Below, in pieces: positions 30,340 through 37,642 of a DNA stretch of 64,000 nucleotides (its first letter is position 1; each line of letters starts with the position of its first letter). The position numbers were made by a program, and so were the translations under genes. The notes below the pieces were generated by a model. The model was not told the origin of the DNA. It did no database searches and saw nothing but the letters and a program-made list of their open reading frames with translations. The DNA comes from Octopus vulgaris (taxonomy: Eukaryota): assembly GCA_951406725.2 (NCBI GenBank), contig OX597821.1:24118001-24182000 (forward strand), given 5' to 3'.

Positions 30340-30915
30340 TAAATGTGTGTGTATTTTTATTTATTTATATTTATATTTATTTATAACTTAACCTTATGTA
30401 CTTTATAAAATCTCCGACGAAGCTTAGAGAAACACCCAAGTACCTCAATTTCATCTACTTATTACTTCAGTATACTTGAGTAATAAAAGTAGAATGAGGT
30501 ATTTTTGCCTCTTGGCTGAAACAGCTGTAAGTTATCTTCCCAATTTATATTCATGTATGTTATATTGTAATAATTACTGGTATCTTTATATATTAATATA
30601 TTTTATATCTCATATGTAAAGCATAATATGTTATACATGTATGTATATTCTTGTGATTGTCATTTTAGTAAATAAATAAGTTGACATAATATAATGTCTA
30701 AAAGTTGATGAACCACCTATTGATCCCCTCCATTTTCAAATTGTTCTATAAATTAATGGTAAAATATCTCTTTACCTTCACCCATTTAGTACACTAGGTA
30801 ATGCAATAAAAAATACTTGTGTATTAATAATCGGGTATTCTACTAGCAGTATATTGGATAGATATTATCCCTTAGTTGGTTAGATTCACAACCTCTAACT
30901 TTCTTGAAATTAAAA
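30340..30915 (+). mobile_element. Solo PLE pseudo-LTR-like insertion in (TA)n
   Basis: Contains a hammerhead. Its 3' part (actagcagtatattggata..ttatccc..acaacc) is homologous to the reverse complement of 37100-37160. (TA)n on both sides. Confidence 0.7.
30411..30533 (+). ncRNA. Hammerhead ribozyme, U4C core (CCGACGA), with long stem II extension
   Basis: tct-CCGACGA-agcttagag ... ctcttggct-GAAA-cagctg-TA-ag. Inner helices tacctca/tgaggta, ctactt/aagtag and attact/agtaat. Stem I is only 2 clear bp. Confidence 0.7.
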
Positions 30916-31129
30916 TATATATATATATGTATATATATATATATATATATATATATATATATATATATATATATATGTATATGTATATATATATATATAT
31001 ATATATATATATATATATATATATATATATGTAGATGCATATATATATATACATATATGTGTATATATATATATATATATATTTTTGTAAAAAAGAAGTT
31101 TGAAAATGCCACTATATTAGATGAATTTT

Positions 31130-31180
31130 AATTTTTACATGTTTCGGTTCTTGAAATAACGAACCTTATCAAAAAGAATT
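31130..31180 (-). ncRNA. Minimal hammerhead ribozyme, U3-A8 core variant
   Basis: Minus strand: ttt-TTGATAA-ggttc gttatttcaa gaacc-GAAA-catg-TA-aaa. Confidence 0.7.
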
Positions 31181-31562
31181 TTTTTATAATAAAGAGTATA
31201 ATGAAATAGTTCATAATTGTTTCATACATTCAATAGAGTCCATGCTATATACAATCAATAGAATCCATGTTCTTGAAAAGGCAAAAAATATATTATAAGG
31301 TGTAAGTCGTTCCTTACTGTAGTGCAGGAGTTCATTATAGATTTTACCTTGTGATCCGATGGGAGCAACAGTAGTGATTCTTGGTTGACGACTGTTAGCG
31401 TAATTTTGGTAACCTTGTGATTGTTGTGTTTATATCAGTTAAGTTGTGGCACTGTTCACTGACGTCATATAATTCCAAACCAATCAAAGCTAAGCTTCAA
31501 CGATTATAAGTAAAAGACCCCCAACTGTATCCTGTTTAGGAAACCAGCCAAGCAGAACGACA

Positions 31563-32125
31563 AGTTTGACCACGGAAGAAAAACGTCATCAATTTTTTAG
31601 CGGATCAAAATTAGATCTGACCCATAATTGTATCCTGGTTAGTTTGACCACGGAAGAAAAACGTCATCAATTTTTTAGCGAATCAAAGTCAGATCTGACC
31701 CATAATTGTAACCTGGTTAGTTTGACCACGGAAGAAAAACGTCATCAATTTTTTAACGAATCAAAGTCAGATCTGACCCATAATTGTATCCTGTTAGGTG
31801 GCTAGTTTGACCACGGAAGAAAAACGTCATCAATTTTTTAGCGAATCAAAGTCAGATCTGACCCATAATTGTATCCTGTTAGGTGGCTAGTTTGACCACG
31901 GAAGAAAAACGTCATCAATTTTTTAGCGAATCAAAGTCAGATCTGACCCATAATTGTATCCTGGTTAGTTTGACCACGGAAGAAAAACGTCATCAATTTT
32001 TTAACGAATCAGAATTAGACCTGACCCATAACTGTATCTTGTAGGGAAACCAATCAAGCATGGCGACAAGCTTGACCACTGGGGTAAAACGTCATCAATT
32101 TTTTGACTAATCAAAATCAGATCTG
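31563..32125. repeat. Tandem array of 78/85-bp units (about 7 copies) inside the PLE
   Basis: Unit agtttgaccacggaagaaaaacgtcatcaattttttagcgaatcaaagtcagatctgacccataattgtatcctg(g/ttaggtggc) starts at 31563, 31641, 31719, 31804, 31889 and 31967, plus a diverged copy near 32069. Confidence 0.9.
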
Positions 32126-32368
32126 TTCGCAGAGAAAAAAATTCTTTTTATAAATTTTTCCTTCCCTAAGCCATACCACTGCCAGCGGGAGTGACTGTTT
32201 AAGGATCTGAGAAATTGTAATTACCCCCACCTCCACTATTTTAATTCTCTCACTGTGGCCGTAGTAACAGTGACCACGGTGGTTGTAGTAGTGGTAGTGT
32301 TAGTGGGAGCAGTCGTAGTGGTTGTGGTAGAGTTTCGTTTTTTCTTTTCGGAAGACCAATGTTTTGTT

Positions 32369-36498: not shown

Positions 36499-36660
36499 AG
36501 GCGCAGGCGTGGCTGTGTGGTAAGAAGTTTGCTTCCCAACCACATGGTTCCGGGTTCAGTACCACCACGTGGCATCGTGTGCAAGTGCCTTCCACTATAG
36601 CTTCATAAGTCCTTGTAAGTGAATTTGGTTGACGGAAACTGAAAGAAGCCTGTCGTGTGT
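36499..36660 (+). mobile_element. SINE 5' half, interrupted at its internal (TA)n by PLE-type insertions
   Basis: aggcgcaggcgtggctgtgtggtaag... head. A matching 3' half resumes at about 39575-39780. Confidence 0.75.
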
Positions 36661-36721
36661 ATGTGTATTTATATATATATATATATATATATATATATAT
36701 ATATATATATATATATATATA

Positions 36722-37040
36722 TGGGAGGTGTTTATAGCCATTTAAGAAACACACAAAAGCCGTTCGATTCACTCCAACATTTAAGTTTAATTTGTCAAAA
36801 TATTTTCGTCGCTAAAATCCGCGACCTGTTCACTGACAAAGTCCGTGCTGCATATATATTTGTCAAAATATTTTCACCTTTCAATCCGTGAGAGATGCAG
36901 CACGGACTTTGTTGTAAAAAATGACAACCCGAACGGCTTTTGTGTGTTTCTTAAATGGCTTATAAACACCTCCACGGCAATTGTTTTCGTTTCAGCACAC
37001 GATCTCAACAAATTACTTGCTATGCGAGTACATCTCCGTA
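36722..37040. mobile_element. Small fold-back PLE-like insertion in (TA)n
   Basis: 36724-36766 is inverted at 36930-36973, and acaaagtccgtgctgcat is inverted at 36895-36912. Contains a hammerhead variant. Confidence 0.7.
36791..36840 (-). ncRNA. Minimal hammerhead ribozyme, G3-C8 core variant
   Basis: Minus strand: tttgtca-GTGAACA-g gtcgc ggatttta gcgac-GAAA-atat-TT-tgacaaa. 7-bp stem I, 5-bp stem II, palindromic stem III. Confidence 0.75.
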
Positions 37041-37504
37041 ATATATATATATATATATATATATATATATATATATATATATATATATACAAATTGAGAT
37101 AGGGGTTGTAAATGCAACCCTCCATGGGATAACATATATCCAATATACTGCTAGTGAAGTACCCAACAAAGTTAATACATAAATGTTAATGATTGCGATG
37201 TAATCAATTCATTTACTGTATTATATGGGCAAAGGTAAAATGATTTACCACAAATTACTAATACAAGATAAGAAAATGGAGAAATACATCTAAATCAAAT
37301 ATCAATTACCAGATAATACTCAATCACATACTTTATTAAACCACCACATAAGAGACTGTAGGGTTAGATATAAAAAGTAGAACAAATCAGTGTACATAAA
37401 GGAATGTACATAAAAAAGTGTACATAAAAGAGTAATGTTGTATAATAAGTAGAATATATATAAAAGAGAATATAAATATAAGTAAATATAAATATAAGTA
37501 TAGA

Positions 37505-37642
37505 TTACATCTTACAGCTGTTTCGGCCATGTAGATAAGTATGTCTCATTTTACCAATATTAGCCCTTTATGGTAGGTCAATATATAGATATAAATGAGA
37601 CATTTACAAAAATATCATAAGACCTCTTCGGAGATTATGTAA
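37505..37642 (-). ncRNA. Hammerhead ribozyme, U4C core (CCGAAGA), with long stem II extension
   Basis: Minus strand: ttacataatct-CCGAAGA-ggtc ... ggcc-GAAA-cagctg-TA-agatgtaa. Inner helix atgtctcatt/aatgagacat. Confidence 0.75.

Follow-up and report, generated by a model that had tools for sequence, protein, structure and literature searches.

What does a hammerhead ribozyme do with an arm of about 100 nucleotides (nt) in the place of stem II? The question is raised by two diverged insertions in a 64,000-nt stretch of the Octopus vulgaris genome (assembly GCA_951406725.2, contig OX597821.1, positions 24,118,001 to 24,182,000 of the forward strand; hereafter the window, whose own numbering is used below). 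The original prediction, made from the letters alone, had described them as a hammerhead family with a U4C core and a selected accessory RNA domain grafted onto it, possibly for recognition by reverse transcriptase (RT), dimerisation or regulation. Judged by sequence comparison and, for the clade, by protein motifs, both sites appear to be 5'-truncated 3' ends of two subfamilies of one Penelope-like element (PLE) of the Hydra clade, a host that the first reading had overlooked. We consider it probable that the arm is a self-closing spacer under selection for pairing within the hammerhead of this element. Element class and ribozyme class are both known; what sets these copies apart is an arm of ~100 nt instead of 10-30.

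The two insertions are composed as follows.

Copy 1, about 30123 to 30914, plus strand: 5'-truncated 3' end (pseudo-long terminal repeat, pLTR, region) of subfamily A, ending at (TA)n; placed by blastn to subfamily A loci, 5' edge approximate.
Copy 1 hammerhead, 30410 to 30533, plus strand: stem I, core CCGACGA (private U4C), stem II, GAAA and palindromic stem III ACAGCTGT.
Copy 1 core CCGACGA, 30414 to 30420, plus strand: GAAA at 30518, H17 at 30529 (predicted cut after A30529).
Copy 1 stem II insert, 30421 to 30517, plus strand: 97 nt, predicted to fold as an imperfect rod whose middle helix pairs 30441-30447 with 30495-30501.
Copy 1 conserved 3' block, 30842 to 30898, plus strand: two predicted hairpins, 30856-30870 and about 30872-30898.
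Copy 2, about 37090 to 39552, minus strand: 5'-truncated 3' untranslated region (UTR) and pLTR of subfamily B, flanked by (TA)n tracts; placed by blastn to a long copy (L103), 91-97%.
Copy 2 hammerhead, 37505 to 37642, minus strand: stem I, core CCGAAGA (lineage-fixed U4C), stem II, GAAA and palindromic stem III.
Copy 2 core CCGAAGA, 37631 to 37625, minus strand: GAAA at 37524, H17 at 37513 (predicted cut after A37513).
Copy 2 stem II insert, 37525 to 37624, minus strand: 100 nt, predicted to fold as an imperfect rod whose middle helix pairs 37602-37596 with 37548-37542.
Copy 2 conserved 3' block, 37099 to 37155, minus strand: two predicted hairpins, 37141-37127 and about 37125-37099, ~9 nt short of the insertion 3' end.
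71-bp tandem array within copy 2, 38030 to 39250, minus strand: amplified from a segment that is single-copy in the subfamily B 3' UTR.

Both sites read as type I hammerhead cores with a palindromic stem III (residues carry the customary hammerhead numbers). The 12-nt sequence GAAACAGCTGTA has two exact matches in the window, at copies 1 and 2 only, and three when one mismatch is allowed, against 0.36 expected. The downstream block that the two were said to share is present as 19 exact nt at 30842 (plus) and 37137-37155 (minus) and nowhere else in the window (0.03 expected). Because similarity extends past the motif, reaching 76% identity in the 3' block and 54% in the extension, the proposed homology of the insertions holds. 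The long stem II is likewise borne out, since the inserts are predicted to fold as rods (z = -3.5 for copy 1, -2.1 for copy 2) and both folds include the helices that had been singled out, TACCTCA/TGAGGTA and TGTCTCA/TGAGACA. Rfam returned no hammerhead match in the window at the gathering score, and none of its 41 matches at E up to 5 within 30300-37800 was to a hammerhead family.

The identity of the host element was obtained from relatives in the 2.8-Gb genome. Copy 1 falls in an older subfamily A, whose best 40 candidates (self aside) are 84-92% identical, and copy 2 in a younger subfamily B with relatives at 97-99%. The copies are variably truncated or inverted on their 5' side, inverted 5' pieces being seen in loci L103 and L105, and a (TA)n tract adjoins the 3' end at almost every locus shown. 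Long subfamily B copies reach a frame for RT with a GIY-YIG domain at its C-terminal end, ~2 kb upstream of the hammerhead. Searching the genome at the protein level turned up a sister subfamily, C, whose open frames span 955-962 amino acids (aa); these intact frames adjoin the same hammerhead type. Loci L110 and L111 have a pLTR-ORF-pLTR layout (ORF, open reading frame) with a hammerhead in each pLTR, ~5.6 kb apart; the L110 protein is 947 aa long from its first Met and carries the motifs FDIQNYY, YRDDA and VVY...YIG. At L013 a broken ORF sharing 55-73% identity with the intact protein comes after a subfamily A pLTR, and a relative with a 110-nt arm (L115) has a broken ORF 48-71% identical to that protein.

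Hydra-clade PLEs are marked, as described in PMC8557442, by RW(K/R), a DKG to DKT change, CxCX5C, CxxC and CxH, and by the lack of CCHH. All of these marks are found here: RW as IRWKIF in L103 and IRWRIF in L110, SDKT in both, a CNCRNKNKC linker matching CxCX5C, and CSLC..E..N..CIH around a conserved E and N; CCHH is absent. Together with the RW/DKT and linker motifs, the lineage has the single ORF with RT and GIY-YIG and the (TA)n insertion with pLTRs, inverted 5' pieces and partial tandems that characterise the clade, and it resembles the members described there (including Hydra-1_Obim) also in having a type I hammerhead near the 3' end. It departs from them in size, with a unit of ~5.6 kb where the clade is generally <3 kb, a protein of 947 aa against about 700 in homologues, and a 3' UTR of ~2.6 kb; short length with a canonical-size hammerhead is a typical trait in that paper's wording and is not stated there to be diagnostic. 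Pfam assigned no family to two ORF fragments of L103, and many protein homologues carry PF26215.

We also considered identity with the non-LTR retrozymes (PMC7229834; bioRxiv 10.64898/2026.07.22.740005), in which, as here, a type I hammerhead lies in an animal repeat akin to the pLTRs of PLEs. Retrozymes consist of short tandem repeats that do not code for protein, whereas the copies here are dispersed, variably 5'-truncated ends of a protein-coding element that run into an RT ORF and do not form tandem units, and the identification was rejected.

Does the U4C core define this family, as had been proposed? The core CUGANGA...GAAA...UH is canonical in subfamilies A and C, and U4C is found in the window copies and the B lineage. 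Only copy 1 has C4 among the 27 of 30 subfamily A loci that cover position 4, while 27 of 29 readable subfamily B loci have it. Genome-wide, cores with a 90-118-nt insert and A17 gave 1361 matches with U4 (control 0) and 656 exact matches with C4 (control 2). On a 73-sequence tree, from which seven copies were left out, U4C arose once under 43 leaves and reverted once under 11, including the intact subfamily C; three further position-4 changes lie on single leaves, one of them copy 1. Since the C4 of copy 1 is private and that of the B lineage has a separate origin, the core common to the two window copies is a coincidence. U4, which occurs in most subfamilies, is the ancestral state, and the youngest, intact subfamily C combines it with a GUC site. 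U4C is a natural variant that considerably lowers activity in vitro, although viroids that carry it stay infectious (PMC3088659). Separately, a short-arm hammerhead family has a CCGA core in many copies among the matches listed, so that U4C recurs in an unrelated lineage.

Across 30 representatives (63% mean column identity; four copies with large indels left out beforehand), G5, A6, G8, A9 and GAAA-CAGCTG-T are invariant, partly owing to the search pattern, as are the stem III pairs; G10.1-C11.1 is G-C in 29 and G-U in one. Two stem I pairs adjoin the core in all 30, but in many subfamilies only these two are contiguous on the core side, and a 3-bp threshold misses 12 of the 30. At the base of stem II, the covariation claimed for the closing stem stood in part. 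Its outermost position does differ between subfamilies (A-U, G-U or G-C), yet is A-A in 3 of the 30, and the two other differences are private mutations: the strands AGCT and GGTC are peculiar to the window copies, where their subfamilies read AGCC and GGCC. The outermost position is probably the extra nucleotide after A9 described in PMC4209133. No terminal loop II lies near the core; in most subfamilies an internal loop sits above the 4-bp base, and it might stand in for loop II in contacting stem I.

In the arm it is the pairing, not the sequence, that appears to be conserved. Inserts had z below -2 in 28 of the 30 representatives, compared with 1, 7 and 5 of 30 for three equal-length downstream windows, and the most stable rods were those of the youngest subfamily C (85 nt, z -6 to -7). 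A named structure of 39 pairs had 79% of its cells paired, against 35-40% when slid, and beat 500 of 500 shuffles, a control that ignores relatedness. With 17 closer sequences RNAalifold recovered the middle helix; of the two pairs there that the original prediction had singled out as compensatory, one is A-U in 8, G-C in 7 and G-U in 2, and the other is U-A in 7, C-G in 5, U-G in 3 and broken in 2. On the tree, two-sided changes numbered 6.9 against a null of 2.3 +/- 1.7, with 3 of 200 nulls as high; pair-keeping and pair-breaking changes stood at 22.5 to 11.8 on deep branches and 26.5 to 35.4 on terminal ones (one-sided p = 0.024), and stepwise paths from U-A through U-G to C-G could be traced. 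A-to-I editing was rejected as the source of the A-U to G-U changes, as paired sites showed A>G and T>C changes at 16.8 to 9.8 on deep and 16 to 9 on terminal branches, with no deep excess. Covariation across copies, which had been put forward as the test of the proposal, thus survives in aggregate only: pairing is conserved above chance on moderate evidence, with p about 0.02 in two tree-aware tests.

Several observations weigh against the spacer reading or qualify it. A tree-aware G-test on 35 pairs found none significant (best E 0.09), and RNAalifold on all 30 sequences kept only eight basal pairs, the middle helix emerging only with the 17 closer ones. The 39-pair structure was derived from the same sequences and so is biased towards 'paired', and in its distal helix pairing reaches only 71%. 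Sequence conservation is higher at paired positions (0.58) than at unpaired ones (0.40), and throughout the clade the arm keeps to 85-117 nt, a constancy not required of a pure spacer. An all-against-all comparison of columns was too noisy for use.

The lack of any individually significant pair would also be expected if pairing were a by-product of how the arm arose, by fold-back or inverted duplication, and were now in neutral decay; these elements readily make inverted 5' segments. Yet pairing was kept while sequence diverged to about 49%, pairs are preserved more often on deep than on terminal branches, the stepwise paths exist and the most stable rods belong to the youngest subfamily, and we regard such an origin as a highly improbable account of the present arm.

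Could the arm be a dedicated domain rather than a spacer? It would then serve as a docking site for the element protein or a host chaperone, or as a partner of stem I, switching cleavage on and compensating for U4C. An arm length held at 85-117 nt in subfamilies whose mean column identity is about 63% agrees with this, as do the internal loop directly above the 4-bp base, just where loop II would normally contact stem I, and the report that PLE hammerheads can be protein-assisted (PMC11167929). However, between clades the identity of the arm (0.49) is below that of the following UTR (0.60, a value that A+T richness and gaps, at 25% gap columns, may inflate), the 3' block (0.74) and the GAAA-stem III segment (0.95). 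Moreover, a 12-15-nt arm tip was lost in the lineage leading to the intact subfamily C, the 3' hairpins are better conserved than the arm, and U4C also occurs in short-arm hammerheads (many among the matches listed), so the arm is not needed for U4C. We therefore hold a dedicated domain to be unlikely. Its most specific form, in which the 85-110-nt arm is a protein-docking platform and the RT-endonuclease switches cleavage on only in the ribonucleoprotein, rescuing a weak U4C core, seems decidedly unlikely. What endures of the selected accessory domain is the selection on pairing; a discrete grafted domain for RT recognition is doubtful in view of the low arm identity, the lost tip and the 6-118-nt range of inserts in the genome.

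That range bears on how unusual the arm is. Among 77 metagenome loci with Hydra-type proteins, 46 hammerheads had inserts of 10-29 nt, none with C4. With a relaxed descriptor that finds all 30 representatives, the other 31 loci, many of which have little 3' flank, yielded a further short insert and a doubtful 59-nt match, giving 47 hammerheads with 10-29-nt inserts in the 77 loci. Two of the metagenome hammerheads (L298, L329) have a U3-A8 core variant. In the octopus genome, cores with the same stem III numbered 4959 with inserts of 6-29 nt (control 4), 2883 with 30-59 nt (control 0) and 2911 with 60-89 nt (control 8), and ~7,800 exact pattern matches had inserts of 30-118 nt, some places possibly being counted twice. 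Similar cores span every insert length from 6 to 118 nt and fall into many unrelated sequence groups; long arms are therefore a recurring trait of this genome and not a single grafted domain. An attempt to assign the 30-79-nt insert classes to a PLE clade was abandoned, as the adjoining ORF fragments are rearranged or separate insertions.

The arm can be compared with published systems. In the Hydra hammerheads of File S2 of PMC8557442, stem II spans 3-7 bp and its loop 3-10 nt, with CUGA throughout, against inserts of 85-110 nt and one U4C lineage here. Minimal type I PLE hammerheads (PMC4209133) share the palindromic stem III, short stem I, G10.1-C11.1 pair, extra nucleotide after A9 and high variability between families; the 'larger than usual' helix II described there measures 6-8 bp, compared with ~30-40 bp in the predicted arm, and the core variant reported is U3-A8, not U4C. 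Viroids offer natural U4C (PMC3088659) and a long helix II in the CChMVd minus strand (PMC3705267, the passage giving no length), but these are viroid RNAs and not retroelements. In the text of the literature searched, no stem II near 100 nt was described in a PLE.

If the arm does not recruit the RT, which part of the RNA might? The shared downstream block is the start of two predicted 3'-end hairpins, with near-invariant stems, variable loops and two pairs showing two-sided change in 15 sequences. It has no common open frame, so that coding sequence was discarded as a reading in favour of hairpins. Insertions stop ~9-15 nt past the second hairpin; in tandem copies the sequence continues into the leader of the ORF. 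By analogy with the anole element described below, the terminal hairpins would be a likelier RT signal than the arm. For dimerisation, another function suggested for the arm, the palindromic stem III offers the better explanation.

The insertion ends also speak to cleavage. Of 60 copies, chosen by their post-cleavage part, just one starts at the predicted cut, and that one lies in a local duplication; insertion templates are therefore mostly uncut. As a separate observation, the 5' end falls within the hammerhead, 0-126 nt ahead of the cut, in 15 of 30 subfamily B copies (L225-L254) and 0 of 30 subfamily C copies (L195-L224), an excess that may be modest given the generally shorter B copies and the choice of both sets by similarity. 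Six subfamily C ends lie at 564-589 nt, where the UTR has a long inverted repeat. Assembled contigs of four out of 14 runs presumed to be RNA span the region with no joints or end pile-ups and are uninformative on cleavage or circles.

These ends raise the further possibility that cleavage is no longer needed in the lineage, core and palindrome being kept for RNA pairing or protein binding and arm pairing for general RNA stability. The 59 of 60 copies that read through the cut site fit this, and so do the persistence of U4C through several amplification waves (656 exact matches; a 43-leaf clade), its reduced activity in vitro (PMC3088659) and the stem I of only two contiguous pairs in many subfamilies. 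Against it, the core residues and GAAA-CAGCTG-T are invariant in all 30 representatives (in part through search-pattern selection), U4 occurs together with a GUC site in the youngest intact subfamily, and U4C viroids remain infectious (PMC3088659); we judge such a loss very unlikely.

The self-closing spacer can be fitted into a mechanism largely borrowed from known PLEs. Stem II would have grown to an imperfect rod of 85-110 nt that mainly holds the two halves of the catalytic core together. Copying of the RNA would begin internally, immediately 3' of the two terminal hairpins, and proceed into a (TA)n site that has been nicked; two hammerheads would pair through the palindrome of 8 nt in stem III, and cleavage would be slow or protein-assisted and probably dispensable for insertion. 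Were it dispensable, a U4C lineage could still amplify, and insertions into the arm would be tolerated if the arm closes on itself. The predicted stem III self-duplex (-11.1 kcal/mol) and the cost of the active monomer fold (3.7-7.2) fit the dimer model for PLE hammerheads (PMC4209133, PMC6765202). In the Anolis Poseidon element PAc, hammerhead mutants inserted normally in vitro, cleavage needed the protein, and reverse transcription has an internal start, at an AC-rich stem-loop (PMC11167929). Similarly, insertions here end just after an ACAACCC-containing hairpin and tandem copies continue into the 5' leader; the start proposed here derives from insertion ends only. PAc differs in belonging to another PLE clade and in having a hammerhead that overlaps its ORF start.

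Elsewhere in the window, five further features were noted.

4255 to 6015, minus strand: 586-aa open frame whose C2H2 zinc fingers stand in tandem with an 84-bp repeat; candidate host gene.
15896 to 18096: 394-nt inverted arms, 89% complementary, in a simple-sequence-rich region.
23330 to 24810, minus strand: disrupted remains of another Hydra-type ORF, sharing 44-55% identity with the L110 protein; 22000-23400 showed no hammerhead.
31189 to 33696: PLE-like RT C-terminal frame (32726-33442, minus strand) between 278-nt inverted arms, 98% complementary.
56241, minus strand: another hammerhead-like core; its insert measures 27 nt and its stem III is different.

Looking ahead, PLE hammerheads have probably been undercounted, because searches cap stem II (one published hammerhead descriptor allows a spacer of up to 17 nt) and Rfam models miss those found here. 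Should the arm prove to be a protein-docking platform after all, the thousands of long-arm hammerheads in this genome would constitute an overlooked class of regulated ribozymes. For the question of what the hammerhead does in PLEs, the family supplies natural paired variants, U4 versus C4 and full versus tip-deleted arm, together with an intact ORF.

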